Of a stretch of 61,295 bases of DNA, positions 22,309 through 56,619 are shown piece by piece. Both the position numbers and the translations under genes were made by a program. The notes under the pieces were generated by a model, which had not been told where the DNA came from, searched no databases, and saw only the letters and a list, made by a program, of their open reading frames with translations. This stretch comes from a virus. The stretch lies in IMG/VR virus record IMGVR_UViG_3300027719_000006; one strand, 5' to 3'. The first letter of the stretch is position 1, and each line of letters opens with the position of its first letter.

Positions 22309-22309
22309 T

Positions 22310-40236: not shown

Positions 40237-40252
40237 TAAGGAGAAATAAAAT

Positions 40253-40858: not shown

Positions 40859-40882
40859 TTATTGAAATATTCCCTAATGTAT

Positions 40883-40949: not shown

Positions 40950-40963
40950 TATTTATTAGACAT

Positions 40964-40996
40964 AAAAAAAGACACTTCCGAGATGTCTTTTTTTAT
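40964..40996. terminator. probable bidirectional terminator
   Basis: Sequence aaaaaaagaca-N9-tgtcttttttt. The stem is short (5 to 7 bp) but has strong A and T runs. Confidence 0.5.
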
Positions 40997-41060
40997 CCTG
41001 ATAAAGTTTTAGCGGGAACTAAAATATCAAAAATAACATTGAAAACATTAATTAATTGTA

Positions 41061-41089
41061 ATTATATGTATCCGTGGGGATATTGTCAA
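41061..41089 (-). promoter_or_regulatory. orphan consensus promoter (TTGACA, 17 nt, TATAAT) with no annotated gene downstream
   Basis: Minus strand: TTGACA at 41089..41084, a 17-nt spacer, TATAAT at 41066..41061. It points at terminator 40964..40996, about 60 to 90 nt away. Confidence 0.5.
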
Positions 41090-41115
41090 TATTATTTTAT
41101 TTTATCTAATAAACT

Positions 41116-41146
41116 AAAAATACAACTTAAATAAGTTGTATTTTTT
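41116..41146. terminator. bidirectional rho-independent terminator downstream of the Rha-like gene
   Basis: Stem tacaactt (41121..41128) / aagttgta (41133..41140), extended by five A-T pairs. Confidence 0.7.
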
Positions 41147-41202
41147 AGAATTCTTTAAATTCTTTTACTAATCTAGCATACTTATTTGTTTAAATTCTTT
41201 TT

Positions 41203-41979: not shown

Positions 41980-42342
41980 TCCTTATAATTTTAATGCTTT
42001 AATTGTAACGTAATTACCTTATAAGGTCAATATTGAATAGTATAAATCTTATTAAAGTTTTTCATATAATATTTTAATAAGACTAAGAATATTTATTTTT
42101 ATTAAAGTACATTTAACTTTGTCCAATTAAATAGAAATCTGTTATCCTAATTTCAACTTTGAACATCTAAGCAACATAATCTCATGCAATATACTTCTCA
42201 TTAAAAATTTGCTACCTAAAACAACGTTTTAAATTATTTTCACATAATTACACTATCTAAACAAAACACGTCTTAAAATGCAAAATACTGCGTCAAACAA
42301 ATATCAGATTTACTTTTAACTGGAGATGTATTTTTTTATCTT

Positions 42343-42818
42343 GTTACACTCTATTTTCTTATAAAACATCCATTTTTGTAAAACTCGCTAATAGCTTGAA
42401 ACTTAACTATAAAAAAACTTGTTACACACCTACACGATTGTTATAACTTAAAAGTTAATTTAAAAATAGTGCTGTAACAAAAACAAAAAAAATGTTTTCA
42501 ATCTATTAGCTAGCTTGGATACTAAAGCTAGTGTAACGAAAAGTCGATGTTACAAAAAAAAAATCTACAATTCAGCATTCATCAATATTAGAGTGCTATG
42601 GCTTGCTGTAACAAAAAAATCAAAACACACACCCCTATATATAATATATATATAATTTTATAATTACCATTATATGTATTTTCTCCATTTTGCATATAGG
42701 GTATTAACATTATTTTTTGTTACACTGTTACACTTATATATATTATTCTTATAATGTACTAATATATATGCATATAGGGCTTTTACCCTGTAACATTTTA
42801 TGTAACTGAAAGTGTAAC
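42343..42818. other. candidate replication origin: at least 12 copies of GTTACA(C)/(G)TGTAAC iterons flanking an AT-only tract
   Basis: GTTACA-core copies occur at 42343, 42421, 42549, 42719 and 42727 (forward). Reverse copies are at 42473, 42531, 42607, 42789, 42801 and 42812. The alternating AT tract is at 42636..42660, and tgcatataggg occurs twice. The region is a 1.2-kb gene-free stretch upstream of the SF3 helicase operon. Confidence 0.55.
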
Positions 42819-43176
42819 AAAAACACTGTTTAAAGTAGTTGCATAAGTAAGTGTATTTTATTGCTTACATTTTTTAGGATATTTTTTGGTATACATACTA
42901 ATTTATTTATATACATTATATGTAATATACCATTTTTTATATATAGAAAGTGTACAAATTTTACTAGTTTTATGTATTTTATTGCTGTAATATATTTGCT
43001 ACAAAAAAGACATTTGTAAAAATGATAAAAATGACAAAACACGTGTTCTAATTGCTGCCAATAATTTCCTTTAATTGGATTTCGTTTTTACTCTTTACAA
43101 ATCAAGTTTGTTATTATACAATTTACTAGATAATGTATTAGGTAAAACTATTGATTATAAATTGGGGGAAATTAAA

Positions 43177-43380
43177 ATGAAATGTCAAGTATCAAATGAA
43201 TTATTTGAAAAAGCTGCTGAAAATAGGTCTTATAAAATAGCAAATGTAGTTTTTGAACCAGACACAATGAAAATGCTTGAAAAATTACAAACATGTTTTG
43301 GCGAAAAGAAAATATCTAGGTCAAAAGTAATAAGACTATTAACTCTAGACTTCTGCACTAAAAATGGGATTGAGGTGTAG
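43177..43380 (+). CDS. small RHH-like protein (67 aa)
   Basis: ATG 43177 is preceded by ggggga. VVFEPDTMKMLEKLQTCFGEKKISRSKVIRLLTLDF fits a strand-helix-helix. The tracked longer start lacks an RBS. Confidence 0.55.
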   Translation: MKCQVSNELFEKAAENRSYKIANVVFEPDTMKMLEKLQTCFGEKKISRSKVIRLLTLDFCTKNGIEV

Positions 43381-43382
43381 TT

Positions 43383-45599
43383 ATGACTACTCAAATTTGC
43401 AATCCCTCTCAATTAGAGGGAAAACTTAGATATCCTCATAACTACGAATACAAATATCATGAAGATAAATTTTTAGATGGGACATATGTTTATATAGAAA
43501 ATGGTGAAGCTCCACCAATATATGAGCATTTGTGCCATCAGAGAATAAGTGTAACAGGAAAATTTTATTCAATTGAAAATAATAGTTATTGTTTTGAAAT
43601 AAAAGTTGAAGATGTCTTCACTAACGAATATGGAATAATACAATCAAAAACAAATGTTGAAATATGCAGTGGTTCAACATTAACAGCTAAAAATTCTATA
43701 ATTAAGTTTTTATCAGATAAATTAGACATTTCAATAACAGAACTTAACTATAAACATTATGTTAAATTTTTTGTTGAGTTTTTAAAAATTAATAAAAATA
43801 ATTTAACAACAAAAAAGTCAACTTCAAGATTAGGATGGCATGATGATTTATTTGCTTCTGTAGATTCAGAATTATGTTACGATTTTTCTTCGGACAGTGG
43901 TTCATTTAGAAGCATGACTAATAATGTAAAACCAAAGGGAACGCTTAAAAGGTGGAAAGAAGTTATAAGAAGATATACTGCATATAAAGATTTTAATTTC
44001 ATAATGGGAACATCTATGGCAAGTGTATTATTAAAACCTCTTGGAGTAAGAAGTTATACAATCATTCCAATGGGCGATAGTGAAAATGGAAAAACATTCG
44101 CAGCTCATTGCGGATTAAGCATATATGGAAAACCTAGCTTTTTAAAAATTGGATCTAATGATACACAAAATGCAATATTAGAAAAAGCATATAGGTATCA
44201 AAACATATGCTTATTGATTGATGATCCTTATCGAAAAGGTAATGATAGTAAGGGCGTTATTGATTTTTACGCAATTGCTAATGAAAAAAATAGAGGAAGG
44301 CTAAACAAAGAATCCCAGTTGACTAAAGAAAAAAGCTGGAGACTCACAAGTATAATAACTACTGAATCTGCATTGATAAAAGATAATGCACAAGCCGGAG
44401 AACACAATAGAATACTGGAATACTATACGAAAAAAATGTACAAAAAAGAAGACCAAAAGCAGGTTGAAAGAGATTATGAACATCTGGAAGAAAATTATGG
44501 CTTAGTGCTGCCAATGGTTATAGACCTATTAAAAGAAATACCTATTGACCAATTAAAGCAGATATTGTTCTTAATTGAAGATGCTTTAAGTGATAAATTT
44601 GAAAACGGAAAACTCAAGGCACATATTAAAAGTGTAGCTATGTCTTGCTTAGGTTCATATATTCTTAATAAATATTTTCTTGAAACAAAAAAGGAGGACA
44701 ACAAATTACTTATGGAGTCAATAGAACTCGGAACATTTATTCTTGACAAGCTTATCGACAAAAAGGATTCTGTAACAGGTAAGGTTGCATTAGAAGAAAC
44801 ATATAACTTCTTCTCAACTAATTATCAAAAGTTTCAAAATGACGTGTTAAACGAAAGATTTGGAACTCTAAATGAATCAAAGATTATTTTCATAATTGCA
44901 CCACTTAAAAAGTATCTTGAAAATTTAGGATATAACTTTAAGGATTTCAAGAAATATGCAATTGATAATAAATTAGCAGAATATAAACAATTGCGAATAA
45001 ATGGAGTTGCAACATGGAGGCTTGTAATACCTCTAGAACAACCAAATGATAATAATGACAATAATACTACAAATAAAAAGATAACACTATTTTACACAGA
45101 TTATAGCTCCTTAGAAGTTAAGTCTGTGACTTTAGACATGAACAATAAAAAAGATGTTGCATGTCTTGACACGGATATAAAATATTTCAAAATTGAGAAT
45201 AACAACATAATTCCATTTGATTTATCAGAATATATTGCAAAAGATGAAAAAGCTGTCGAAATATTAAAAGAATACGCAGAGGAAAAAGAAGCAAAAATTG
45301 CTATAAATAGGGGAAATGATTTGTCGGCAATGATAACAGAAAATGAAATTGAACAGTCGAATGAAGAACTATTAGAGTTTGACATTAATACAGGAGAACT
45401 CAAAGAAGTCAAAGTTGTAGAACCTAATCGTGTTTACATATCTCGAAAAACGTATAATATAACAACACCACGTTTTACAGTGTCGACATATAAAAGTATT
45501 TATGTACAAAATTTGACACGACTAGGTGTCCGGTTAGGAGAAAACATTGAGAATTTAATTTTAAGATTAGCTGAATCGGCTAACTTGAATTTTGAATAA
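43383..45599 (+). CDS. DUF927-type SF3 replicative helicase / primase-helicase-like protein (738 aa)
   Basis: SRLGWHDDLF, then Walker A MGDSENGKTF, Walker B ICLLIDDP, and NEKNRGRL...WRLTSIITTESAL follow the DUF927 pattern. RBS gaggtg. Confidence 0.7.
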   Translation: MTTQICNPSQLEGKLRYPHNYEYKYHEDKFLDGTYVYIENGEAPPIYEHLCHQRISVTGKFYSIENNSYCFEIKVEDVFTNEYGIIQSKTNVEICSGSTLTAKNSIIKFLSDKLDISITELNYKHYVKFFVEFLKINKNNLTTKKSTSRLGWHDDLFASVDSELCYDFSSDSGSFRSMTNNVKPKGTLKRWKEVIRRYTAYKDFNFIMGTSMASVLLKPLGVRSYTIIPMGDSENGKTFAAHCGLSIYGKPSFLKIGSNDTQNAILEKAYRYQNICLLIDDPYRKGNDSKGVIDFYAIANEKNRGRLNKESQLTKEKSWRLTSIITTESALIKDNAQAGEHNRILEYYTKKMYKKEDQKQVERDYEHLEENYGLVLPMVIDLLKEIPIDQLKQILFLIEDALSDKFENGKLKAHIKSVAMSCLGSYILNKYFLETKKEDNKLLMESIELGTFILDKLIDKKDSVTGKVALEETYNFFSTNYQKFQNDVLNERFGTLNESKIIFIIAPLKKYLENLGYNFKDFKKYAIDNKLAEYKQLRINGVATWRLVIPLEQPNDNNDNNTTNKKITLFYTDYSSLEVKSVTLDMNNKKDVACLDTDIKYFKIENNNIIPFDLSEYIAKDEKAVEILKEYAEEKEAKIAINRGNDLSAMITENEIEQSNEELLEFDINTGELKEVKVVEPNRVYISRKTYNITTPRFTVSTYKSIYVQNLTRLGVRLGENIENLILRLAESANLNFE

Positions 45600-45627
45600 A
45601 TAAAACATGAAAAGGAAGTGTAATCAA

Positions 45628-45936
45628 ATGAGTCACATGATATTTGCACGTAAAAATTCAAAAGATAAGACAGATAACGAAATACTATTTGATGGAATAG
45701 AAATTGCAGAATTAAATTATAGTATGTCAAATAATAATTCATATATACCATATGCATTATTGAATTCGTTAGAAAATCATGGCGGAGTTTCTGGAAATGG
45801 TGAGAGGAAAGAATATACTTTTGAAGATATTCAAAATGCATTAAAAAATATTGAAAAAGTTAAAGATTTTTTTACACAAATAGAAAAAGAAATGGATAGT
45901 GATAATTTAAATAAAATAACTATATGGTGGGGATAA
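45628..45936 (+). CDS. hypothetical protein (102 aa; 109 aa if ATG 45607 is used)
   Basis: ATG 45628 lies 9 nt after aaggaag. ATG 45607 has no RBS. Confidence 0.5.
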   Translation: MSHMIFARKNSKDKTDNEILFDGIEIAELNYSMSNNNSYIPYALLNSLENHGGVSGNGERKEYTFEDIQNALKNIEKVKDFFTQIEKEMDSDNLNKITIWWG

Positions 45937-45937
45937 A

Positions 45938-46096
45938 ATGAATATATATGGGGACAAAGAATCAGATCAGAGAAATGAATTAAAAGATATGAAAATATTA
46001 TTAGAAAAATTAAATAAAAAGATTGATACTCAAAATATGTTAATTCTAATATATTTTATTCTATTGATTATTTGTATAGGTGCGATACAGATATAA
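45938..46096 (+). CDS. small protein (52 aa) with a C-terminal TM; paralogue of 46127..46291
   Basis: Hand-translated as MNIYGDKESDQRNELKDMKILLEKLNKKIDTQNMLILIYFILLIICIGAIQI. Shares the motif (D)xKxxLEKLNKxIxTQN with the next ORF. Confidence 0.45.
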   Translation: MNIYGDKESDQRNELKDMKILLEKLNKKIDTQNMLILIYFILLIICIGAIQI

Positions 46097-46126
46097 ATAA
46101 ATTTAAAGAGACTGGAGAAATTTTAT

Positions 46127-46291
46127 ATGGACAACACATTCACAAGCAACATGAAAGACATCAAGGAGATGCTTGAAAAGTTAAACAAGAATATTGAAAC
46201 ACAAAATAAGTTAGCTTTTATTAATTTACTGGATACTAAAGACCCGATGAGAATAAGGCTGCTTACGCAGTTAAGAAATGAGTTGTTTTAG
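46127..46291 (+). CDS. small protein (54 aa), paralogue of 45938..46096
   Basis: Hand-translated as MDNTFTSNMKDIKEMLEKLNKNIETQNKLAFINLL... RBS ggagaaa. Confidence 0.45.
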   Translation: MDNTFTSNMKDIKEMLEKLNKNIETQNKLAFINLLDTKDPMRIRLLTQLRNELF

Positions 46292-46293
46292 AA

Positions 46294-46461
46294 ATGACAA
46301 ATAAGGAACTATATAAATATTATAAAGATAAGAAAATATGTCCATGGTGCAAGAAAAACAAAGCAGTCAAGGGAAAAGTAAAATGTCTTATATGCTTAAT
46401 GGATGATAGAGAATACAGAACACAAAAGAGAGAAAATTTAAAATTATTAAATAGTAGGTGA
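46294..46461 (+). CDS. small zinc-ribbon protein (55 aa)
   Basis: Hand-translated. Contains CPWC...CLIC. Starts 2 nt after the previous stop. Confidence 0.45.
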   Translation: MTNKELYKYYKDKKICPWCKKNKAVKGKVKCLICLMDDREYRTQKRENLKLLNSR

Positions 46462-46468
46462 AAATAAA

Positions 46469-46801
46469 ATGATGAATGATAGATTATATGATTTTATTGC
46501 TAATAATATGCATACTTTTGATAAGCAAACTAGAATGTTATCAATTGCTAATATTAAAAATATGAGCAATGATTATTCAGAAGACGAGTTGAATAAATAT
46601 GATACTCAAAAATTAATATGCTTAGAACAAATAATTAAATATGGAATAGGAATAGAAAAACATGATAAATTAATAGACTTATCATATAAAGTAGATTTTA
46701 ATAGATTTTTAGCAATATTAAGACTACAAACCGAAACAAATATTTATAATAAAGATAAATTAGTTAATATGTCAAAAATAAATTTAGTTATAAAAGATTA
46801 A
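46469..46801 (+). CDS. hypothetical protein (110 aa)
   Basis: ORF track. RBS aggtga. Confidence 0.55.
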   Translation: MMNDRLYDFIANNMHTFDKQTRMLSIANIKNMSNDYSEDELNKYDTQKLICLEQIIKYGIGIEKHDKLIDLSYKVDFNRFLAILRLQTETNIYNKDKLVNMSKINLVIKD

Positions 46802-46820
46802 TTAGAAAGTGGGAATTAAG

Positions 46821-46940
46821 ATGAAAATTTTAGATTATTTATATGAAAAGTTTCAAAAGAGTATTACGCCAAAGCAAAAGATGATTGCAATTTTTACTAG
46901 AAAAAAGATGATATATAAAATAAAAAAGACCTTATCATAA
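46821..46940 (+). CDS. possible small basic protein (39 aa)
   Basis: Hand-translated. RBS gtgggaattaag. The stop lies inside the terminator hairpin. Confidence 0.35.
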   Translation: MKILDYLYEKFQKSITPKQKMIAIFTRKKMIYKIKKTLS

Positions 46941-46950: not shown

Positions 46951-47156
46951 ATAGTTAACTTTTTAACTGTGAGTAATTCATTTATAGACTTACCGTTTTT
47001 CAATTGCACTTCTAATATTTCAAGTGCAGTATCTAGCAACACTGATTGGTTGAGTCTAGTGATTTCCTTTAACCGGACAATCCTTTGTACTTCATCCGGA
47101 TTAACTTTAAATGTTTTAGTAATGTCGAATTTATTTCTATTAATTAAACTTTTCAT
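46935..47156 (-). CDS. small protein (73 aa), possibly RHH-like
   Basis: ATGA overlap with the ParB-like gene. TKTFKVNPDEVQRIVRLKEITRLNQSVLLDTALEIL fits a strand-helix-helix. Tentative. Confidence 0.45.
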   Translation of the reverse strand: MKSLINRNKFDITKTFKVNPDEVQRIVRLKEITRLNQSVLLDTALEILEVQLKNGKSINELLTVKKLTIKKTL

Positions 47157-47812
47157 GATATCGTGTCCTTTCTATCTTCAAAATTACTTTCATATTCCTC
47201 CCATGACCTAGAAAATTCATGATTGCCAAAAGCTTCCTTTAATCCAGTTATTTGTTTAAGTCTCAATACTTCTTCAAATGACATTCCTAGCTTTTTACAT
47301 ATATATTCATCTGTCCACCCACTACTTACTAACTCCAATACAATTCCACTCATTGACTTTATTTTATGAGTTCCTCTCGCTCTGTTATGTCTTATTGTGC
47401 TTCCTATTCTTTCGTCAATTTCTTTATCTATTGTTGTGACTGGAAGCCTTCCAAATGTTCTTTTATATATATCCTTATGCTCATTACATATTCTATTTCT
47501 ATGAAACCCATCAACTATCTCTCTGTTACCTGTATCCATTTTATAGGTTACCACTGGTTGAGTATATCCATCTGACTTTATTGATTCATAAAGTAATTTC
47601 ATCTCAGGTCCAGCAACTTGGTTTGGATTATATTCATTTGCTTGTATATTTTCAATTTTTTCCCATAGCACGCAGTCAATAGGTTCATTGATTGGTGATA
47701 TTTTATGTAAACTACTTTTAATCATATTTAATGTATCTATTTTATTATCATCATCAAGTAAACTTATTTCATCAATTATTATTTTTAAAGCCTCTTCTAT
47801 TTTATTGTTCAT
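47153..47812 (-). CDS. ParB-like N-terminal (nuclease/NTPase-type) domain protein, IbrB-like (219 aa)
   Basis: IQANEYNPNQV...LLYESIKSDGYTQPVVTY...EIVDGFHRNRI is the ParB/Srx signature. ATG 47812 lies 9 nt after ggagg. Overlaps the PAPS-reductase-like gene. Confidence 0.7.
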   Translation of the reverse strand: MNNKIEEALKIIIDEISLLDDDNKIDTLNMIKSSLHKISPINEPIDCVLWEKIENIQANEYNPNQVAGPEMKLLYESIKSDGYTQPVVTYKMDTGNREIVDGFHRNRICNEHKDIYKRTFGRLPVTTIDKEIDERIGSTIRHNRARGTHKIKSMSGIVLELVSSGWTDEYICKKLGMSFEEVLRLKQITGLKEAFGNHEFSRSWEEYESNFEDRKDTIS

Positions 47813-49103
47813 TTTCAATTTCCTCCTTTAGTCTTGCCATTTCCTTAGTATTTGTAGGAATTGACAATAATTCTTTCCATTTTGATTTTAAATTTCTCAT
47901 GTCATTTTTGTCTGCTTTTGTAATTCCATAGTTGCATCCAGTTAAAGCAAAATCATTTTTTTCTATACATTTGGCTATTCTTTTCCATTGAATCCATCTT
48001 CCATTTTCTCTTCCTATTATTTCTTTTACAGTTTTTTTATCGATTTCATCAGGTATTTCGCTTTGATGTTTTATTCTGTTTTCTTTAATGTAGTGGTCAA
48101 TATATATTCTTATTTTTCTATAGTAATGCTTTTCTAACTCGTTGCAGTATAGACCAAGGCTTTCTAATAAAAAAACTGTATATTGCTCCCATGTCATATG
48201 ATTTGGTTTTTCTGTTCCATTGTTTCCTAATAAAGTTGTTTTTGCATACAATGCCCCAAAATTAGCTCCAGAAACTCTATTAACAATTTTTTCCCATGTA
48301 TCAGGTTCAAATTTAGCCCATTGGTTTAAACTATTTTTTTGTGACAATCCAAATGGCTGAGCTATCCTAGATTCATGAATTGACATTCCAGACTTAAACA
48401 TTAATTCATACACATAATTATATGAAAAATTGTATTTAGAAACACATCCCCATATATCTTGAGTTGACCAATCATAGATAGGATAAAAACTATAGCAACC
48501 ATTAAAATTATCTGTACTCCAATATAAATTTTTATACATATTTTTGCCAAGGGCAATAGCCCTAAACCTATTCAGACTTTCATCTGCTCTTATACCTTGT
48601 AGATTTGCAATCTTGTTAGTTTTGTTTATATGCTTGTACCAATTTGTAAAAGCCTCAAACATTCCCCTAAGGAACAAATCATTTACAAAATATTTATCAA
48701 AATTTTCAGGATAATTATTTTTATTAATTGAATCTTTTGGTAATTTTCTAACCCATTTCTTTTTAAATTTTTCATCCCAAGGATACCAGAATCTATCAAA
48801 AACACTAGTAGCATTATTAGCCTTAAATGACCAACATATGTGATAGAAATTTTTAATATTTGACAACTTTTTAAGTTCATATATATGATTTATAGTAGCC
48901 TCATATTGGGCTTCGTAATCGATAAACATAACATCAAAAGTTCTATTTCTTTCAATAGCTACTTTATTTAATAATTGAACTAATGTACTGCTATCTTTTC
49001 CACCAGATAGGCTTATGTATATATGCTCAAATTCATCAAAGATTAAATTAATTCTTTCAATTGAAGCATCATATACATTTTTATTAGTATATATTTTACC
49101 CAT
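47802..49103 (-). CDS. PAPS reductase-like PP-loop ATPase with a DUF3440-like C-terminus, IbrA-like (433 aa)
   Basis: PP-loop motif YISLSGGKDSSTL, plus GIRADESLNR. The long C-terminal extension is typical of IbrA-type proteins. RBS ggaggtg. Confidence 0.7.
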   Translation of the reverse strand: MGKIYTNKNVYDASIERINLIFDEFEHIYISLSGGKDSSTLVQLLNKVAIERNRTFDVMFIDYEAQYEATINHIYELKKLSNIKNFYHICWSFKANNATSVFDRFWYPWDEKFKKKWVRKLPKDSINKNNYPENFDKYFVNDLFLRGMFEAFTNWYKHINKTNKIANLQGIRADESLNRFRAIALGKNMYKNLYWSTDNFNGCYSFYPIYDWSTQDIWGCVSKYNFSYNYVYELMFKSGMSIHESRIAQPFGLSQKNSLNQWAKFEPDTWEKIVNRVSGANFGALYAKTTLLGNNGTEKPNHMTWEQYTVFLLESLGLYCNELEKHYYRKIRIYIDHYIKENRIKHQSEIPDEIDKKTVKEIIGRENGRWIQWKRIAKCIEKNDFALTGCNYGITKADKNDMRNLKSKWKELLSIPTNTKEMARLKEEIENEQ

Positions 49104-50508: not shown

Positions 50509-51663
50509 TTAATTGGAATCCTTTAAGTCATCTAAAATATCAACATTGCTGTTTAATATTTCTTCTAACTTATTTAATTCTTTATCTCTATTTTTTGAGG
50601 ATAATATTTTTTCAACTTTGAAGCTATCTTTATATTTTTCCATAGCTTCAACAGCCATTGGAGAAAACTTATATCCAAACATATCAGCAAAGTCTTTAAC
50701 CTCTTTCCATGCTGATAAGTCAATATGTGTTTTTCCATTAACATATTTTTGTGTTGGCAACTTTCTACTTTTCTCATAGTTATTTATGACTAGTTTTTTA
50801 TCTCTTGAATTAAACTTAATCCACTTAGTAAATTCTGGTATAAACATTGCGTTAATAGCTGATTGAATAACTTTATCATTTTCAAATTTTACAGGATAAC
50901 CATTTTTAAGAAAATGATTTCCGACTTCTGAAATTCTATCAATTGCATCATTATTTAATAATTCAAGTTGTTTTTCCCATTTATAACTACCACTATTCCA
51001 TTTATACCCATCTAGTCTTTTTATTAAATCAACCATATCTCTATCATAATCAAACTTGACTTCGATAGATTCTTTATTTGAAGTTATTTCAACAACATTA
51101 TGAGAAATTTCGTTTTCTGGATGAACAATTAATTCTTCGTTGATTTCATTCTCTATTTCTTTTTCAACTTTATTTTCAATAGATAGTTGAATATAAAGCT
51201 TATAGAACATACCTAACACAATAATAGTCTGCAAGCTTCTATTATCTATATACCATTTTGCAGATTTAAAATTATTAATAATAAAATCAACTAATTCTAC
51301 TGAATTAATTTGTTTCATATTTGAAAATACACTCATCTCATTTTCAAATACTCTAAAGTTTCCATTTTCAGAATCAAGATAAATAATTTTATTATCTATA
51401 TAATCAATCCATTTTTGTCTAAGCGTATTTGCCCAGATAACTTGTTTTTCACTACCTGATAATGCAGGCAATTCCATTTCTTTTGATTTTTCAGCAGCAG
51501 CAGCATTTTCTTTTTCTACTTTTCTTAAAAACGCTTCTTTGGCACATTCTTCGCAAAGGTTGTCAAATTTACCATCTGCAATATATTGTCTGTTTTTTAC
51601 TGGTCCAATTATATTTACTTTTCCTTCGTGCCCACATCTGAATTCTCCATAATACCATGCCAT
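50509..51663 (-). CDS. hypothetical protein (384 aa) with an N-terminal Cys/His zinc-ribbon-like segment
   Basis: ATG 51663 lies 8 nt after ggagg; the tracked start is a TTG inside the RBS. Motifs FRCGHEG...CEEC, then LSGSEKQVIWANTLRQ. Confidence 0.6.
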   Translation of the reverse strand: MAWYYGEFRCGHEGKVNIIGPVKNRQYIADGKFDNLCEECAKEAFLRKVEKENAAAAEKSKEMELPALSGSEKQVIWANTLRQKWIDYIDNKIIYLDSENGNFRVFENEMSVFSNMKQINSVELVDFIINNFKSAKWYIDNRSLQTIIVLGMFYKLYIQLSIENKVEKEIENEINEELIVHPENEISHNVVEITSNKESIEVKFDYDRDMVDLIKRLDGYKWNSGSYKWEKQLELLNNDAIDRISEVGNHFLKNGYPVKFENDKVIQSAINAMFIPEFTKWIKFNSRDKKLVINNYEKSRKLPTQKYVNGKTHIDLSAWKEVKDFADMFGYKFSPMAVEAMEKYKDSFKVEKILSSKNRDKELNKLEEILNSNVDILDDLKDSN

Positions 51664-51967
51664 AATTAATACCTCCAAAAATTTTATTTTTTTATCATAT
51701 AATAATTATACTACTTTATATTACTTTTGTACATACTTTTTAAAAATATTATTTATCATAATTATCAAATTAGCCTCACAGTTTTATTTAGTCTTACATA
51801 TATCCATTTAAAAATCTGTGTTGTCTCCATAACCTCGATAATAAAAATAACGCCTGAACACTGCTGTATCACTACAATACAAGCGATAGCTTGAAAGCAT
51901 TGATATCACTGCATTTGAATAACATTAACATGTTTATAGATTTTTGAGTTGAAAATTAGACTAAAAT

Positions 51968-51992
51968 AAAAAGACTATGGATAAGTCTTTTT
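51968..51992. terminator. bidirectional rho-independent terminator at the end of the membrane/FtsK operon
   Basis: Stem aaaaagact (51968..51976) / agtcttttt (51984..51992). Confidence 0.65.
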
Positions 51993-52200
51993 ATTTTAAG
52001 ATACTGTCAATTATAAATTTGTTGAAATTATTTTTTGAATTTAGTTTTGATAAGTATACTATATCTTTAAATGCAACTATGAAGAATATTACTGATGAAA
52101 TTAATGTGATATATAAAAATTCTTGATAGTCTATTGCATGTGTGAATGTGATACCTATACAGAAACTGCATAATATAGTTTTAATTACTAGCAGATACAT
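51991..52200 (-). CDS. small two-TM membrane protein (69 aa)
   Basis: ORF track. RBS agaggtg. Confidence 0.55.
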   Translation of the reverse strand: MYLLVIKTILCSFCIGITFTHAIDYQEFLYITLISSVIFFIVAFKDIVYLSKLNSKNNFNKFIIDSILK

Positions 52201-52202
52201 TG

Positions 52203-52715
52203 CTACACCTCTATTTTATTATTTATTATATATTCTATAAACTTTTTTAATATAAAGAAAGCACAATTTTTCTTTTCTTTTATAAAAAATATGTCCATGT
52301 CAAAATCTCTTTTTAGTGAATTCAATGAACCTTTGTAACAATTCGGATGAAAGTTAGATCTATAGTTATGATTTTCAATATCTGCATACATTGCATCTTC
52401 TATCATCAATAATATCCTTGCTCCAATTTCATTAGCTCGTCTAAATTCGTTTTTGAATCGTTCTCTTTTATTAGGTTCACCTTTTTTGCCAGTTTGAAAA
52501 TTACTAGCCAATTCATTTAAACGTTTTCTTTCTACGGCAATTTTTTTTGTGAAGTCTAACGGATTTCCTTTTAATCGGAATCCATAATCACCAAAATTAA
52601 GCTTTTCTCTATAAAATTTTATATTGTAGTTTTTTAGGACTCTAGCAATATGCCAGAAGTCCTGTTCCCTTGTATCTATTATTATTTCTATATTACTTAA
52701 TATTTTCTTAACCAT
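52203..52715 (-). CDS. ERCC4-type (XPF/Mus81/Hef-like) nuclease, resolvase candidate (170 aa)
   Basis: Motifs IIIDTREQ, NFGDYGF and AVERKRLNELASN reproduce the ERCC4 catalytic motif order. Confidence 0.7.
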   Translation of the reverse strand: MVKKILSNIEIIIDTREQDFWHIARVLKNYNIKFYREKLNFGDYGFRLKGNPLDFTKKIAVERKRLNELASNFQTGKKGEPNKRERFKNEFRRANEIGARILLMIEDAMYADIENHNYRSNFHPNCYKGSLNSLKRDFDMDIFFIKEKKNCAFFILKKFIEYIINNKIEV

Positions 52716-52716
52716 T

Positions 52717-52821
52717 TTAGTTATCTCCCTGAACTAATTCTAAAGTTATATAAATGCTTGCACACAATATGATACATAAACATGTTTTAAATCCTTCAGT
52801 TAAAAGTAAATCTATAATCAT
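52717..52821 (-). CDS. possible 34-aa hydrophobic peptide
   Basis: Hand-translated as MIIDLLLTEGFKTCLCIILCASIYITLELVQGDN. It exactly fills the gap between the FtsK-like and ERCC4 genes. RBS gaggtg lies 8 nt upstream. Confidence 0.35.
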   Translation of the reverse strand: MIIDLLLTEGFKTCLCIILCASIYITLELVQGDN

Positions 52822-52822
52822 G

Positions 52823-54361
52823 TTAGACACACCTCTCATCACCTAATATTTTTTCTTTTGATTCAAGCATTGGGACCTTTACAAATGTATATTCCCTATC
52901 ATTTTTCAATACAATTTCTCCTGGTTTAGTTGCTCGCATATCAACTATATCCAACACAACTTTAGATGCTGTTCCATCCGCAACAGGTAGACATATTCTG
53001 TTAGGCATATTTGTCTTTAGTGTATTGGGAATAATATCTATGCTTGGATATTGTGTAATAACAAATATTCTAAAACCGCTACTTCTACCTTGTTCCAACA
53101 ATTTTTTTAACATCTTTGCAAATGCTGACTTCTTATCAAAATGTGCAAATTCTTCTACAATGATTAATTGATAACCTAACTTATTAGGCTCATTTTCATT
53201 GTATTTTTCTATGTCTGTATATCCAAGTTTAGCAAATAGGTTGTTTCTTGTGTTCATTTCCTGCAAGCAACTTACTAACTGTGCTTCCATTAGATTGTCT
53301 TCACATGAATATCTTACATTTTTGTATCTCTCATAATATTTTAAACCCACTTTTTTAGGGTCAAACAAATGAAGAAATACATTGTCTTTTCCAGCTGTAA
53401 AAATACTACACAGCATAACATCTATTAAATTACTCTTACCACCTCCAGTAGTACCGGCTATTAGCCAGTGAGTATTTTTGATTAAGTTTATTATTTTTTG
53501 TTCTCCATCTTCTGTATATCCAAGTAAGACACACAAATCATGTTTATCATTTACAGCCTGTTGAATATCCTCAAATCGGTAAATATTGTCCTTCTTTGCA
53601 GTTGATAATTCGACATATCCATCTTTAGATTTCAAAGTAAATACCATACCTAGTTGATGACTGATTTCCTTTAACTGGGATTCCCAGTCTTTCAACATGC
53701 TATTAGATTTTATAATAAACTTTATATTTACAGGATTTTCTTTTTCTTTTATTTCTTCTATGTTAAGTTTTAAGTTTTTACATACTTGATTTATTCTACT
53801 TATTAGTGTATTCTCAACTTTTTTTGTTAATTCTACGTTTTTATTTATGTTAATTGTCGAAATTACATCATTTTTCATATCAATTATTGGTTTATCAATT
53901 TTATTTTCAAAGTTACAATCCTCAAAACAAATTATAACTTTTTGAAAACTTTTATAAAAATCAATTTTAGTTATTTCTTTGTTAAATATAATTTTTAGTT
54001 CTTCTTTTTTAGTAGTCCATTTATTTAATAGATAAGTGTTTTTTAAAATTAAATCATTTCCATGTTTTTTTATCAATTCTGTTTCAATGTTAACCTTTTC
54101 AAATTTTTTCTTTATCTTTTTATTTATATTTTCAAATTTTAAAATATTTATCATAACTTCAGGTACTGGAACAATTAAGAATAAAAATATGAATATTAAT
54201 TTTTCAGTTGCAATTGTAGGAATAGTTGATATCATTATCATTATAAATAAATATATTCTCTTCTTTAACAAGCTACTTTTCTGGAATAATTCTTTTATTC
54301 CAGAAAAGTATTTTTTCATAAATTCAAGCAAATCAAACTCTTTTTTATTATCATTTTTCAT
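52823..54361 (-). CDS. membrane-anchored FtsK/SpoIIIE-family DNA translocase-like ATPase (512 aa)
   Basis: N-terminal TM segments. Walker A LIAGTTGGGKSNL, Walker B QLIIVEEFAHF, and GFRIFVITQYPSIDIIPNTLKTNMPNRICLPV (compare aTQRPs..vi...iKaN.p.Ri). ATG 54361 follows agagga; the tracked alternative is 54421. Confidence 0.8.
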   Translation of the reverse strand: MKNDNKKEFDLLEFMKKYFSGIKELFQKSSLLKKRIYLFIMIMISTIPTIATEKLIFIFLFLIVPVPEVMINILKFENINKKIKKKFEKVNIETELIKKHGNDLILKNTYLLNKWTTKKEELKIIFNKEITKIDFYKSFQKVIICFEDCNFENKIDKPIIDMKNDVISTININKNVELTKKVENTLISRINQVCKNLKLNIEEIKEKENPVNIKFIIKSNSMLKDWESQLKEISHQLGMVFTLKSKDGYVELSTAKKDNIYRFEDIQQAVNDKHDLCVLLGYTEDGEQKIINLIKNTHWLIAGTTGGGKSNLIDVMLCSIFTAGKDNVFLHLFDPKKVGLKYYERYKNVRYSCEDNLMEAQLVSCLQEMNTRNNLFAKLGYTDIEKYNENEPNKLGYQLIIVEEFAHFDKKSAFAKMLKKLLEQGRSSGFRIFVITQYPSIDIIPNTLKTNMPNRICLPVADGTASKVVLDIVDMRATKPGEIVLKNDREYTFVKVPMLESKEKILGDERCV

Positions 54362-54431
54362 TTTATTATCCTCTTTAATTTTTATTTTTTTATCATGTGA
54401 AATTGTAAAGTGTTTTATCATGTGAAATTCT

Positions 54432-55069
54432 ACCTTGCGATACCTTGCGAAATTTTATTTATTACCTTGCGAAATATCAACATTACCTTGCGAATTCGCA
54501 AGGTTCAAAACCTTTATTTTTTTATTCTCAATTATAATTTTACCTTGCGATTTTAATTCATCTTTAAATTTTCTCAACTCATATGATGTTAGATTGAACA
54601 TATTCTCAAGGTCTGAATTTGTTTTCTCAACATAACCTTGCGAATTTCTCAAGGTATTTATCAAGTTGAGAAATTCATTTTCACAAGATGGCTTATTAAA
54701 TTTCGCAGGGTTAGTTGATACAAAATGGGTATACCTTGCGTCGTCTAATGCAGTCATATCAAGTGTCGCAATGTCTTTCACAGGGTTATTTGAAATGTCC
54801 GTATTTTCATCAAAAACTTTTTTGTTACCTTGCGAATTCTCAGGATAACCTTGCGAACCTTGCGATTCTACCTTGCGAATACCTTGCGAATTCTCAATGT
54901 TACCTTGCGATACCTTGCGAATACCTTGCGAAAAAACGAGGTTACCTTGCGAATCATCTTGCGATTTCTCAAGGTCTACCTTGCGAATTTTTTTACTACC
55001 TTGCGAACCTTGCGAAATAATTTTACTACCTTGCGAATTACCTTGCGAAATTTGTAAATTACCTTGCGA
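54432..55069. repeat. array of the 9-mer ACCTTGCGA: 21 perfect direct copies, 1 perfect inverted copy and several 8/9 variants
   Basis: Perfect copies start at 54432, 54442, 54464, 54485, 54542, 54635, 54827, 54848, 54857, 54870, 54881, 54902, 54912, 54923, 54944, 54978, 54998, 55007, 55028, 55040 and 55061. The inverted copy at 54496..54504 forms the 20-bp palindrome ACCTTGCGAATTCGCAAGGT. Confidence 0.95.
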
Positions 55070-55789
55070 AATTTTTATGTTTTCCTGATACAAATTTTCA
55101 ATTCTCATGATAAATTTATAAGAAAAGTTGAAAAATATTTTTGACAAGATTCCTTTATATAAATTTTCACTAGAATTTTTATTCAACATTTTAAAATCTT
55201 GGGCAATTGCTATTGCAAAAATTGATATAAAATCTATTGAAATACATAGTACTAAAGTTGTGATCATGTTTATCATGTTGCCATTATTTTTTCCTGAGAA
55301 AAAAGTGTAATTTCCATATACACTTATTCCAAGCAACATATATTTTAAGAAAATAGCCTTTGAAGCGTGTTGCCTAAAATGTTTTTTTACATTTGTATCC
55401 TGTTTGGATAGCAGAAACACTGTAAACTGAATCATGATTATTGCTGAGACAAAAGAAACAAGCTTAAAAGTATTTCCAATAAATAATTCATATAACCCAG
55501 CTATTGTAAGACAAGTTGAGATTATTGTTGCTAATGTTCCCCAGAAGTCAATTAACTTACCAGCCCTTACAATAGCTTTATCTTGTAGTACAGTTATTTT
55601 CAATTGTCTGATTCTTTCGTTAACCTTCAATTGGTCTTCTTCTGTTTTTATTTTATTTAGTTCAACTTCATTTTTTGTCTTAATTTCTGTGACTTGAAGT
55701 TGAGAATTGCTTTTCATTAGTTGTATTTTTTTTGCGTGAATTCTTTCTATGTCTTCTATGTTTGCATTTTTTCTAAATAATTTAAACAT
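54455..55789 (-). CDS. multi-pass membrane protein (444 aa) whose C-terminal half is encoded across the 9-mer array (SQG / IRKV repeats)
   Basis: RBS aggaggg. Coiled-coil N-terminus, 4 to 5 hydrophobic segments, then a repeat region and a non-repetitive tail (…LTSYELRKFKDELKSQGKIIIENKK…). The reading frame is open but the repeats are stop-free in several frames, so the extent of coding is uncertain. Confidence 0.6.
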   Translation of the reverse strand: MFKLFRKNANIEDIERIHAKKIQLMKSNSQLQVTEIKTKNEVELNKIKTEEDQLKVNERIRQLKITVLQDKAIVRAGKLIDFWGTLATIISTCLTIAGLYELFIGNTFKLVSFVSAIIMIQFTVFLLSKQDTNVKKHFRQHASKAIFLKYMLLGISVYGNYTFFSGKNNGNMINMITTLVLCISIDFISIFAIAIAQDFKMLNKNSSENLYKGILSKIFFNFSYKFIMRIENLYQENIKISQGNLQISQGNSQGSKIISQGSQGSKKIRKVDLEKSQDDSQGNLVFSQGIRKVSQGNIENSQGIRKVESQGSQGYPENSQGNKKVFDENTDISNNPVKDIATLDMTALDDARYTHFVSTNPAKFNKPSCENEFLNLINTLRNSQGYVEKTNSDLENMFNLTSYELRKFKDELKSQGKIIIENKKIKVLNLANSQGNVDISQGNK

Positions 55790-55813
55790 ATTACCCTCCT
55801 AAATAGAAAAAGC

Positions 55814-56041
55814 CTACATTAGGCTGTTTCCAATCGATTTAACAAATTTAATTACTATCATTCCTAAATCTCTAAATTGAAGTGGAAAGAATGCAAATGC
55901 TACAACTATACATCCTATTCCAAGTTTTTGTAATGTCCTTCCTGCTTGTTCCCCTTTTATCATTCCTTGAACCACTCCCCATAAAACTAGCCCAGTTGCT
56001 ATAGTTCCAAAGATTGGAGATAAATTAGTTAATATATCCAT
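55814..56041 (-). CDS. small two-TM membrane protein (75 aa), VirB2/Maff2-like architecture
   Basis: FGTIATGLVLWGVVQGMIKGEQAGRTLQKLGIGCIVVAFAFFP gives two TM segments around a short polar loop. Extended RBS gggggaactaag. Family assignment is tentative. Confidence 0.5.
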   Translation of the reverse strand: MDILTNLSPIFGTIATGLVLWGVVQGMIKGEQAGRTLQKLGIGCIVVAFAFFPLQFRDLGMIVIKFVKSIGNSLM

Positions 56042-56065
56042 CTTAGTTCCCCCTATTTATATTTT

Positions 56066-56206
56066 TTAAAATATTATTTTTTTTAATATTATCGTACTAA
56101 TTAAACTCATGACTAACATATAATAATCAGCCTGTGATACTGCTACTGTCCAGAGCATTATAACGATAAGTATAATTAATAATTTGTAACAAAGTTTTAT
56201 TTTCAT
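56066..56206 (-). CDS. possible 46-aa membrane peptide
   Basis: Hand-translated as MKIKLCYKLLIILIVIMLWTVAVSQADYYMLVMSLISTIILKKIIF. ATGA overlap with the upstream stop. Confidence 0.4.
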   Translation of the reverse strand: MKIKLCYKLLIILIVIMLWTVAVSQADYYMLVMSLISTIILKKIIF

Positions 56207-56619
56207 AAAAACTCATTCCTTTTTATAATTTTTATTCTGCCTTGTTTCTCAGCTTTGTAGATATCGTCTCTGTCCATGTTGTCTATATCTAAGTTTTCTA
56301 TGTCTTCTTGATTTCTTATTGTATATGCACCTAATAACCAGAAATACAATGGAATACTACAAAACATTGTTATGTTTGTAAGCAAGTTGTTAGCCCATAC
56401 AGGATTATTATTATGCAATAAAGTTGAAGTTGTGTCTTTGGTAATAATTGTAATAGTTGTTAATGCTATAAATGGTAAAAATGATATTACCTGTGTCAAT
56501 GATGGTTTTATGAAAAATTCTTTCATTCCAGTTAAAAGTAAACCCATTGTTTTAAACAAAACGGATTCCTTCTTAATTGGACATCTTATAATTTCTTTTT
56601 TCTCAATAATGTTATTCAT
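56203..56619 (-). CDS. membrane protein (138 aa)
   Basis: ORF track with hydrophobic segments. RBS aaggggaattaataag. Confidence 0.6.
   Translation of the reverse strand: MNNIIEKKEIIRCPIKKESVLFKTMGLLLTGMKEFFIKPSLTQVISFLPFIALTTITIITKDTTSTLLHNNNPVWANNLLTNITMFCSIPLYFWLLGAYTIRNQEDIENLDIDNMDRDDIYKAEKQGRIKIIKRNEFL

Follow-up and report, generated by a model that had tools for sequence, protein, structure and literature searches.

A 640-bp locus (54432-55069) in the 61,295-bp stretch of viral DNA analyzed here, hereafter the window, carries about 30 perfect and degenerate copies of one 9-base word, written through the coding sequence of a 444-aa membrane protein and into the spacer beyond it. Judged by sequence comparison, the target of selection at this locus is the DNA word and not the peptide that it encodes. 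We propose that the array provides cis-acting docking sites for the winged helix predicted at the C terminus of that same membrane-tethered protein, working together with the FtsK-like motor encoded beside it. In the absence of binding data, we regard the case for this proposal as evenly balanced; binding of the word by the winged helix, action of the motor on array DNA, and the biological role of the locus are all inferred.

The word ACCTTGCGA occurs 22 times in the window, 21 times on the plus strand and once, at 54496, on the minus strand. A count over both strands places every copy within the locus and none in the rest of the window, against a mean of 0.07 and a maximum of one in dinucleotide-preserving shuffles of the window. 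These numbers bear out an earlier, sequence-only reading of the same DNA, which had reported 21 direct copies and one inverted copy. That reading had also put the one-mismatch copies at five or more; seven lie inside the locus, and only four others are scattered across the remaining ~60.6 kb. Its account of the reading frames holds as well. Sixteen copies lie in the frame of ORF 54455..55789, where TCG CAA GGT encodes SQG; three frame-shifted copies (54870, 54912, and 54978) translate as IRKV; and two (54432 and 54442) fall past the stop codon at 54455, in intergenic DNA.

The array can be divided into three parts, none of which is assigned a strand. A dense proximal cluster (54827..55069) holds 15 perfect copies of ACCTTGCGA in a single orientation, together with degenerate and inverted half-sites such as those at 54892 (minus), 54956 (plus), and 54967 (minus), the latter two being one-mismatch copies. 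It occupies the DNA encoding a linker, about aa 241-321, that is disordered in the AF2 model of the protein. Dispersed copies (54551..54826) then run through the coding DNA of the winged helix and the distal linker; one is perfect (54635), and five have a single mismatch (54604, 54647, 54703, and 54766 on the minus strand and 54733 on the plus strand). Within this part, ACCTTGCGA-ATT-TCTCAAGGT forms an imperfect palindrome at 54635-54655. Since the protein context here is non-repetitive (aa 383 and 414), the dispersed copies did not arise from tandem slippage. The distal cluster (54432..54550) covers the C-terminal tail, the stop codon, and intergenic DNA, with six perfect copies at 54432, 54442, 54464, 54485, 54496, and 54542. 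The inverted copy at 54496 belongs to the 20-bp palindrome ACCTTGCGAATTCGCAAGGT at 54485-54504, which is indeed perfect, as had been claimed. Both intergenic copies are kept in related phages, one of which (L002) has a third. TRF found no coherent tandem unit in the array; two sizes of segmental duplication, 42 and 54 bp, can be seen in it. Two other identities were considered and dropped: a CRISPR-like array, because the spacers measure merely 0-13 bp, and a pac site, because the array lies about 24 kb from the terminase genes, inside the early module.

Selection on the DNA word is indicated by the presence of the word in two reading frames and past the stop codon, by the codon bias toward TCGCAAGGT on the coding strand, and by the low variability of the word columns. 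Across six genomes, namely, the window and five related phages of 89-96% protein identity, 89 of 92 SQG tripeptides are encoded by TCGCAAGGT, where codon usage predicts about 1%; TCG makes up only 4.5% of Ser codons, giving P of about 0.01 per site. Diversity is 0.020 in word columns versus 0.094 in spacers, about 4-fold lower (Fisher p=5e-4), and at third codon positions it is 0.024 versus 0.226 in the N-terminal half of the gene (p=9e-10). Where the relatives differ by indels, whole units have been gained or lost, with the frame always preserved. Synonymous scrambling of the DNA word in relatives that keep the peptide would have refuted the sequence-only reading; the five related phages instead keep the word. 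Its inference of a binding-site array superimposed on coding sequence is thus supported and has survived all tests run, although no binding data exist.

A peptide repeat would be confined to its ORF and to one frame, with every spacing divisible by 3, and the locus does not show this signature either. Where this word does occur in true peptide-repeat arrays elsewhere, every spacing is a multiple of 9. Among the listed matches of an array scan of viral contigs and metagenomes, those besides the known relatives were unrelated arrays only, being either collagen-like and in frame or micro- and minisatellites of perfectly regular period (8-22 bp). In annotation, a short "peptide repeat" in a linker of this kind is not to be taken as a protein feature.

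Spacing adds less than it first appears to. As had been noted earlier, most neighbors (16 of 20) lie 9-13 or 20-22 bp apart. The best period in a Rayleigh scan is 10.66 bp (R=0.84), above the codon period (R=0.65), and all five relatives give 10.66-10.70 bp. However, permuted spacings already reach a maximum R averaging about 0.69-0.72 (p=0.0075 for the window and 0.02-0.42 for the relatives), and rounding the spacings to whole codons leaves R unchanged. The phasing follows from the dominant 21-bp unit, since 21 bp is both seven codons and two helical turns. Thus, the helical phasing described in the sequence-only reading is a true description of the array, but it carries no independent weight beyond the 21-bp unit, and we have ruled it out as a separate line of evidence.

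The gene that carries the array (54455..55789, minus strand) encodes a protein with a clear architecture, established from an AF2 model, TM prediction, and fold matches of its winged helix. An N-terminal coiled coil is continuous with the first TM segment (helix aa 3-98). The four TM helices (about aa 80-200) are followed by a helix at aa 214-249, a disordered linker at aa 250-365, and a C-terminal winged helix at aa 366-430, encoded at 54500-54694. The model, based on a 67-sequence alignment, has pLDDT values of >90 in the N domain, <50 in the linker, and 80-90 in the winged helix. The latter superposes on the DNA-binding domains of GntR, MarR, Crp, and MntR and on a plasmid initiator (probability up to 1.0, rmsd 2-4 A). 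The protein matches no Pfam, PHROG, NCBIfam, or PADLOC family and hence is not a known defense component, and its own winged helix has no significant Pfam match. Searches of INPHARED phages and PLSDB plasmids, by blastn with the locus and tblastn with the protein, returned no relatives. A 389-aa ORF at 50509-51678 was entertained as a second paralogue in the window and rejected by BLAST.

The adjacent gene (52823..54361, minus strand) encodes a membrane-anchored FtsK/SpoIIIE-type ATPase (PF01580, 6.6e-17) with two N-terminal TM segments and a Walker A motif at about aa 303. Its mechanical ORF reaches 54421, and its likely start is MKNDNKK at 54361, where the RBS and start are conserved in relatives. 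It ends 47 aa after the ATPase domain, without an FtsK_gamma or other C-terminal winged helix. As a member of its superfamily it is generic. Its best NCBIfam scores fall far under every curated cut-off, including 40 bits against a cut-off of 800 for plasmid_TraB; it resembles EssC, a protein secretion ATPase, to about the same degree as TraB; and PADLOC matched only the generic ATPase parts of SspH, HerA, and mad8. Between the array and its start codon lie two exact ATCATGTGAAAT repeats, 25 bp apart (54392..54428, no strand assigned), with no other exact copy in the window; this is a different word and possibly a separate operator. Directly upstream of the array gene, where a terminator-like hairpin lies at 55811-55825, three small genes (55814..56619, minus strand) conserved in relatives encode predicted membrane proteins of 138, 46, and 75 aa, and predicted membrane proteins are the products of seven of the eight consecutive genes around the array. 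An ERCC4-type nuclease gene (52203..52715, minus strand) is present as well; in other lineages its linkage to the module is frequent but not universal. Rfam and tRNA scans detected no known RNAs in the window.

A profile search extends these observations to a family of about 90 representatives (about 92) at 50% identity, all labeled "hypothetical." Repeated 4-mers are found in 27 of 67 linkers (mean 3.15 versus 0.17 when shuffled), and by this crude proxy about 40 of the 67 members have no clear repeated peptide. Counting that of the window, five distinct words are embedded in the equivalent gene region of five lineages, each in at least two frames. The lineage L112 has TGTTAAAA 21 times (18 in one frame and 3 in another), L239 has AAGTTAGCA eight times (split 4 and 4), L238 has GTTATAAC nine times (5 and 4), and L237 has GTTAAGA ten times (9 and 1). 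L113 has ten units of 21 bp, and L001, L109, L003, and L108 have two to four palindromes of 15 bp, 72-81 bp apart, at the equivalent gene position. Across lineages, the class of word co-varies with the recognition helix of the winged helix. Helices with KNK[IV] or RTKI accompany TGTC..GACA palindromes, those with [RS][EG]W.K[VLM][KR] accompany GTTA-core words, and the window helix SYELRKFKDEL accompanies TCGCAAGGT. From this co-variation, and without binding data, we infer that the winged helix may bind the word.

The family gene is also linked to an FtsK-like motor gene. In all eight independent lineages with enough flanking sequence to be counted (the window group, L001, L108, L109-111, L112, L113, and L238), an FtsK_SpoIIIE gene on the same strand is found no more than 3 kb away, either upstream or downstream. 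Most of these partners have N-terminal TM segments; that of L001 has none evident.

Taken at face value, these features would describe a membrane-docking system. Its sites would be spread over three places: linker codons, the DNA around the part coding for the winged helix, and the spacer before the next gene. The basic site would be a palindrome of roughly 20 bp (ACCTTGCGA-AT-TCGCAAGGT), whose 9-bp half-site may have been amplified in the window lineage to its present number in one orientation and mostly at spacings of 10-11 or 21 bp. The four TM helices would form a membrane anchor, with oligomerization through the coiled coil probable, and because the 444-aa protein is membrane-anchored, it would tether the phage genome to the membrane at this one locus. 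Action in cis would be favored by synthesis of the winged helix beside its own sites. Its putative partner is the adjacent membrane-anchored FtsK/SpoIIIE-type ATPase, which lacks a DNA-reading domain of its own. In effect, reader, motor, and site array together would constitute a sequence-directed membrane DNA-handling device, functionally equivalent to Streptomyces clt and TraB (with SpdB2) but split into two proteins and borne by a tailed phage. Membrane-attached replication, segregation, and translocation of phage DNA are all possible roles. The sequence-only reading had named iteron, centromere, and clt-like options without choosing among them; the evidence favors a clt-like or membrane-docking role with the FtsK-like neighbor, and a replication origin is not excluded.

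It is instructive to set this putative device beside the Streptomyces system (pSVH1 and pIJ101). There, TraB reads direct 8-bp repeats in clt and co-purifies with SpdB2, a protein built of a coiled coil (aa 1-99), four TM helices, and a C-terminal part that binds DNA (PMC4447253). In both cases short direct repeats (8-bp there, 9-bp here) cluster at one locus, although we take the resemblance to clt to be one of form only. The repeats are read by a winged helix in Streptomyces, whereas a winged-helix reader is inferred here. The motor in both is a membrane FtsK/SpoIIIE-type ATPase, but the window motor is no TraB equivalog, and it lacks the C-terminal MarR-like wHTH of pIJ101 Tra. The 444-aa protein shares the predicted layout of SpdB2 (about 409 aa), namely, a coiled coil, four TM segments, and a C-terminal DNA-binding part, and both are encoded amid genes for small membrane proteins. 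The predicted reader domain thus sits on the SpdB2-like protein rather than on the motor, whereas SpdB2 itself binds DNA non-specifically. The carrier also differs, being a tailed phage of a low-GC host and not an actinomycete plasmid, and its sites are written through coding sequence in two frames. Using hhalign, we detected no sequence homology to pIJ101 SpdB (probability 0.1) or phiC31 gp25. None of 67 family members matches PF10935 (DUF2637, the 4-TM proteins of actinobacteria and actinophages), and in fold the N domain resembles DUF2637 proteins of phages only weakly (probability up to 1.0, E 0.01-0.35, target TM-score 0.41-0.59); gp25 itself has no DUF2637 match, and phiC31 has no FtsK-like gene.

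Two further systems are pertinent. In FtsK/KOPS and SpoIIIE/SRS, an FtsK-type motor takes its direction from a winged helix that recognizes a short polar DNA word (PMC8190038). Those words are dispersed and strand-skewed across the replicon, whereas the window copies all lie in one locus, and the reader there is a gamma domain fused to the motor, a domain that the window motor lacks. Closer in setting is the early region of phage SPP1, where the TM proteins 31.1 and 31.2 and the FtsK/TrwB/VirB4-like ATPase of gene 32 form an uncharacterized module that has been proposed to be a trans-membrane translocon (PMC6316719). The likeness is one of composition, both being early-region modules that combine small membrane proteins with an FtsK-superfamily ATPase. 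For the SPP1 module, neither a cis site nor a protein that reads DNA has been described, and gp32 has no TM segment where the window motor has two.

The strongest competing explanation is a replication origin of the lambda O or SPP1 gp38 type, in which the words would be iterons within the gene of an origin-binding protein that would nucleate unwinding, the membrane anchor merely positioning replication at the membrane. We consider this unlikely, but it remains a serious alternative. Phage precedent exists for origin repeats within the initiator's own gene, as in lambda, where they lie inside gene O. Likewise, the winged-helix initiator gp38 of SPP1 has its sites (oriL) inside its own gene in an early replication module, with specificity that differs between related phages (PMC6316719). 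Sites within the gene of a winged-helix protein (its binding being inferred here) and direct or dyad-symmetric repeats are common to all three systems. The gene in the window likewise belongs to an early replication and recombination module (RecT, RecD2-like helicase, ERCC4, and SNF2 helicase). Weak matches of family winged helices to replication initiators also favor an origin: HTH_36 (Pfam) is matched in 11 of 67 members, with the L001 domain passing the gathering score; Phage_rep_O is matched in one of 67; and the PHROG families "replication initiation protein," "O-like," and "DnaD-like" are weakly matched. The window's own domain has no significant match to either Pfam family.

The rest of the protein does not fit an initiator. 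The lambda and SPP1 initiators are soluble proteins that bring in a DnaB-type helicase or its loader, whereas the protein here is integral to the membrane, and no helicase- or loader-interaction domain was found in it; searches detected no Rep_O C-terminal, DnaD, or DnaB_2 domain in its part outside the winged helix (coiled coil and four TM segments). We know of no initiator in which a 4-TM domain replaces such an interaction domain. No DnaB-type helicase or loader gene adjoins the family gene, whose conserved neighbor is instead the FtsK-like ATPase, and other dedicated initiators coexist in the same elements: RepA_N in L112, a RepL set with a DUF5906 helicase and a DnaG-like protein in L001, and a DUF927 primase-helicase in the window. 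About 30 sites far exceed the number at typical phage origins; lambda O and SPP1 gp38 have about two to four, followed by an unwinding element. An 84% A+T block just downstream (54350-54400) counts for an origin, although such a block is unremarkable in a genome of 72% A+T.

A partition centromere is improbable. Here, the winged-helix protein would coat the array in the manner of ParR-parC or TubR-tubC and segregate an extrachromosomal prophage, with membrane anchoring taking the place of a cytomotive filament. Both parC and tubC are arrays of short direct repeats (~10-12 bp) at helical spacing, and the window array shares this feature, its repeats lying about one or two helical turns apart. 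There is also one locus per genome, and no integrase was found among the window ORFs scanned, although not all ORFs were covered. However, the module has no cognate partition NTPase: none of the ParA, ParM, or TubZ type is present among the genes scanned between 47 and 61 kb. The only ParB_N protein found (47153-47818) is 7 kb away and paired with a PAPS-reductase/DUF3440 gene. To our knowledge, centromere-binding proteins are small and soluble, whereas the binder predicted here is embedded in the membrane and its array lies inside coding sequence. Moreover, several loci of the family reside in integrase-bearing elements (L001).

It is also quite improbable that the sites are operators only, through which the winged helix controls expression of its own gene or represses the FtsK-like promoter, with copy number having drifted upward. 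Palindromes do fit dimeric repressors, and a precedent is Streptomyces traB, which is toxic and under tight repression (PMC4447253). A promoter-like site, TTGATA-17-TAAAAT (54452..54480, minus strand), overlaps the distal cluster and faces the FtsK-like gene, and its -10 element is conserved in relatives. However, it is a consensus match only (10/12), in a scan that gave 15 matches against 10.5 expected. Fifteen of the perfect sites are deep (400-600 bp) in the coding region, distant from any promoter, and a repressor would have no need of a 4-TM anchor. In L109-111, L112, L113, and L238, the FtsK-like gene is upstream of the family gene, and an operator for it cannot be among sites in the 3' half of the latter.

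The absence of any DNA function, with a young, concertedly evolving repeat in a tolerant linker and frame switches as by-products of slippage, is disfavored to the point of being scarcely tenable: a disordered linker does tolerate indels, the segmental duplications are real, and unrelated in-frame SQG or collagen-like repeats elsewhere retain the same DNA word, but those unrelated arrays are strictly regular in spacing where this one is irregular, copies here extend beyond the repeat tract (one of them inverted, others beyond the stop codon or in DNA coding for the structured winged helix), divergence affects the spacers but not the words, the array persists despite a third-position diversity of 0.23 elsewhere in the gene, and in an equivalent place five lineages have five distinct words, which track the recognition helix, and others have palindromes.

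If the array does serve as docking sites for its own membrane-tethered winged helix, a more specific function can be envisaged, though only tentatively, and we think it unlikely to be right in full. Tailed phages of low-GC anaerobes may encode a split, sequence-directed dsDNA translocon in which the membrane reader loads a separate FtsK-type motor, so that phage DNA would be moved or held at or across the membrane or septum. Such a device could act in second-step genome entry, in transfer to a daughter cell or forespore, or in conjugation-like spread without virions. If so, it would be a phage counterpart of Streptomyces TraB/SpdB2/clt, and the analogy would mean that Streptomyces-type dsDNA translocation is not limited to actinomycete plasmids. 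The FtsK-like genes of siphophages, SPP1 gene 32 among them, are widespread and unexplained, and the device would supply a first function for them.

Whatever the role of the array, the locus is a natural case of two codes in one sequence, with a DNA word kept intact across two protein frames. The same design is seen with different words in at least five lineages and is enabled by its siting in a disordered linker. The family that carries it, newly defined and unannotated, has about 90 representatives, a clear architecture, and an invariable FtsK-type neighbor. No role is known for the FtsK/SpoIIIE-like genes that phage early regions commonly contain, and the probable cis site and probable reader described here now provide experimental handles on them.

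The window contains 22 copies of the 9-mer ACCTTGCGA (21 on the + strand and one on the − strand), against 0.07 expected from dinucleotide-preserving shuffles. Counted over the whole window and on both strands, no copy falls outside 54432–55069, and this locus also holds seven copies with one mismatch versus four in the other 60.6 kb. Sixteen copies are translated as Ser-Gln-Gly (SQG) in ORF 54455..55789, a minus-strand gene of 444 aa; three (54870, 54912, and 54978) are shifted by one base and give Ile-Arg-Lys-Val; and those at 54432 and 54442 lie past the stop codon. The single inverted copy makes a perfect 20-bp palindrome at 54485–54504. On all these facts (copy number, two frames, copies beyond the stop, and palindrome), the sequence-only reading was accurate. 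Fifteen perfect copies form a dense proximal cluster at 54827–55069, six form a distal cluster across the stop codon at 54432–54550, and further copies are dispersed between the two. Many direct copies follow a degenerate inverted half-site (gene strand, A(C)NTTGAGA-(A/T)T-TCGCAAGGT), so that the basic array unit looks like a ~20-bp dyad with one arm kept perfect. The helical phasing proposed earlier is real, with a best period of 10.66 bp (R = 0.84) and 10.66–10.70 bp in all relatives, but it is not separate evidence. When the spacings are permuted, the maximum R still averages ~0.7, and R does not change when they are rounded to codons. Thus, the phasing follows from a 21-bp unit (seven codons, two turns) that frequently holds an additional copy close to its middle.

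The DNA word itself is under constraint, as had been inferred from the window alone, and four lines of evidence bear this out. First, TCG provides 4.5% of Ser codons and GGT 28% of Gly codons in the 57 other ORFs of the window; codon usage predicts that SQG be spelled TCGCAAGGT in ~1% of cases, yet 16 of 16 are. Second, it is the DNA word that related phages keep. Five related contigs (L002, L004, L105, L106, and L107), whose proteins are 89–96% identical, carry 17–22 copies in the same place, and the nine bases are identical in 89 of the 92 SQG tripeptides of the six genomes. Word columns have a nucleotide diversity of 0.020, versus 0.094 for the spacers that separate them and 0.091 for the N-terminal half; when only third codon positions are counted, the values are 0.024 (words), 0.226 (N-terminal half), and 0.072 (remainder of the C-terminal half). 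These contrasts were compared by Fisher tests; the ratios are somewhat flattering, since alignment of a repeat tract favors placing word on word. Third, the relatives differ by gained or lost units of 9, 12, 21, and 42 bp, always in frame, and L002 has a third intergenic copy. Fourth, TRF found no coherent tandem unit in the array, only overlapping periods of 9 to 54 bp with 61–85% match, and single copies also occur in unique sequence that encodes the winged helix (aa 383 and 414); the array is thus not a tandem repeat. The same 9-mer forms long arrays in giant-virus and other contigs (L031, L057, L079, and similar), at spacings that are always multiples of 9. These ordinary in-frame repeats, presumably of a collagen-like G-S-Q kind, served as a negative control. 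Metagenome matches to the array, among the matches listed, were a known relative and regular satellites.

The 444-aa protein has no match in Pfam, PHROGs, NCBIfam, or PADLOC. An AlphaFold2 model from a 67-sequence alignment predicts a confident N-terminal part (pLDDT above 90), in which one long helix (aa 3–98) spans a coiled coil and the first of four transmembrane (TM) helices, which are followed by a helix at 214–249. A disordered linker (aa 250–365, pLDDT below 50), whose DNA is exactly where the dense word cluster falls, leads to a winged helix (aa 366–430, pLDDT about 80–90). The modeled winged helix superposes on the DNA-binding domains of GntR, MarR, Crp, and MntR and on a plasmid initiator, and sequence-profile matches were also obtained. 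For the N domain, structure search found no PDB match; among viral structures, its likeness is to DUF2637 and "membrane protein" entries from actinophages and to phiC31 gp25, with a probability of 0.9–1.0 but E of only 0.01–0.35. On the reading with the best support, these words would serve as docking sites to which the membrane-tethered winged helix of the same gene attaches; no binding or function has been demonstrated. Docking would anchor a single phage-genome locus to the membrane, and the device would work with the adjoining FtsK-type motor. We infer that siting the words in the 3′ half of the gene itself, around the codons for the winged helix, would favor capture in cis.

A profile search of 1.8 billion representatives yielded 92 family proteins of 250–450 aa. 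Members with source names are all "hypothetical protein," one being from a Fusobacteriaceae MAG, and another family locus (L108) is binned with a Spirochaetales MAG. HTH_36 is matched by 11 of 67 members and Phage_rep_O by one of 67, and a few match PHROG families named replication initiation, O-like, or DnaD-like. Linkers are rich in member-specific short repeats, with at least two repeated 4-mers in 27 of 67 (mean 3.15 versus 0.17 shuffled). At the family loci whose DNA could be fetched, the window's picture is replicated with other words. L112 carries 21 copies of TGTTAAAA in one orientation, 18 read as xVK[STR] and three as [VM]LK[DE]; L239 has eight copies of AAGTTAGCA (four KLAx, four KVSx), L238 nine of GTTATAAC (five VITx, four [SC]YNx), L237 ten of GTTAAGA (nine in one frame, one in another), and L113 ten of a 21-bp unit, all in frame. 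In L001, L109–111, L003, and L108, two to four copies of 15-bp palindromes (TTTGTCCNGGACAAA, TTGTCATGGACAA, CCTGTCAATGACAGG, TTGTCAATGACAA) lie 72–81 bp apart in linker DNA, one copy in L001 being past the stop codon. Four copies of the palindromic GTTATAAC in L238 (6356–6626, read as [SC]YN[VAF]) fall in membrane-domain DNA (aa 119–209) rather than the linker; therefore, embedded sites are not strictly limited to disordered regions. The main argument that each protein's own winged helix reads the sites is that word classes co-vary with the recognition helix: KNK[IV]/RTKI helices pair with TGTC..GACA dyads, [RS][EG]W.K[VLM][KR] helices with GTTA-core words, and SYELRKFKDEL with TCGCAAGGT. This co-variation is qualitative and covers only about seven lineages.

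All eight independent lineages with sufficient flanking sequence have an FtsK_SpoIIIE gene within 3 kb of the family gene and on the same strand; it lies downstream for the window group, L001, and L108, but upstream for L109–111, L112, L113, and L238. Most of these partner ATPases have N-terminal TM segments. They score far below curated cut-offs for FtsK, TraB, EssC, and HerA and are generic superfamily members. The window's ATPase stops 47 aa after the motor domain and lacks a DNA-reading domain. Some motors may carry their own reader, since the C-terminal tail of the 608-aa partner in L108 (7602–9428) resembles a winged helix (…EKEFGINKRQRLQVYEELLFKNIILKAPGNKW…). Around the array, seven of eight consecutive genes at 51991–56619 (−) have predicted TM segments (138, 46, 75, 444, 512, 41, and 69 aa), an ERCC4 nuclease being the only one without, which points to a membrane complex of several proteins.

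With its tape measure, major head protein, portal, and terminase, the window is a tailed-phage genome; it is remote from every deposited phage, its portal being at most 34% identical. The early module, in which the array lies, runs RecT, RecD2-like helicase, small ORFs, 444-aa gene, FtsK/SpoIIIE-type ATPase, ERCC4 nuclease, SNF2 helicase, PAPS-reductase/DUF3440, and ParB_N. The last two, an IbrB/IbrA-like pair at 47153–49103 (−) with the ParB_N-domain protein directly downstream, probably serve DNA modification or anti-defence and not partition. In L002 (64.5 kb), tail protein, amidase, small ORFs, and RecT run across the positions of the window's two ends, and from this gene order the window is probably a complete genome, circularly permuted or circular. 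At 40000–46900, a + strand gene island with reversed GC skew interrupts the otherwise minus-strand genome; it contains a DUF927 primase-helicase (43383–45599), a Rha/antirepressor-like regulator (41203–41979, −), and an amidase/regulator-like ORF (40253–40858), and this island could be where replication initiation or lysogeny control truly resides, or it could have been inserted as an element. A sugar-nucleotide pathway is encoded at 18836–24966 (−), and also at 15817–16887, flanked by the major head gene on one side and the portal/minor-head genes on the other: a PseB/FlaA1-like dehydratase (Polysacc_synt_2, 8e-98), a DegT aminotransferase (5e-99), a NeuB-like protein, two cytidylyltransferases (CTP_transf_3, IspD), and two GT29 sialyltransferase-like proteins, one fused to a methyltransferase. 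It looks like a phage-borne cluster for nonulosonic-acid (pseudaminic or legionaminic type) synthesis and transfer, and a Toprim-domain protein adjoins it.

The main rival to membrane docking is an origin inside its own initiator gene, as in lambda O. SPP1 gp38/oriL has the same arrangement (PMC6316719). The weak initiator-type matches of the winged helix, the embedding of the array in the gene of the protein itself, and its place in the early module all favor an origin. However, a membrane domain stands where a helicase-recruiting domain is expected, there is no DnaB-type partner, the sites number ~30, and the same elements have other initiators (RepA_N in L112, RepL plus primase-helicase in L001, DUF927 in the window). 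That the sites are only an operator is less likely. A promoter-like site facing the motor gene overlaps the distal cluster, which may also act as an operator, but this cannot be the conserved role because the order of family gene and motor gene differs among lineages. Two exact ATCATGTGAAAT repeats (54392–54403 and 54417–54428) stand between the array and the start codon of the FtsK-like gene at a distance of 25 bp from each other. They are kept in relatives and have no further exact copy in the window; they may be a second operator unrelated to the 9-mers. A centromere is also less likely, as is a neutral repeat.

The closest functional model for the docking reading is the Streptomyces clt/TraB/SpdB2 system, in which TraB reads direct 8-bp repeats in clt and co-purifies with SpdB2, an oligomeric four-TM protein with an N-terminal coiled coil, a DNA-binding C-terminal part, and homologues on actinophages (PMC4447253). 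We do not claim membership, since the window's reader is not on the motor, no sequence homology of the family to pIJ101 SpdB or phiC31 gp25 was detected, and the motor is not a TraB equivalog. By analogy, the uncharacterised SPP1 module of gp31.1/31.2 (TM proteins) and gp32 (FtsK/TrwB-like) may belong to a related kind of system (PMC6316719). Genes that hold the sites bound by their own product are already a known kind, as are clusters of repeats that FtsK-type systems read. What is new is the protein family, a reader that would be anchored in the membrane, its invariable pairing in phages with a reader-less FtsK-type motor, and, family-wide, lineage-specific words encoded in several frames of a disordered linker.
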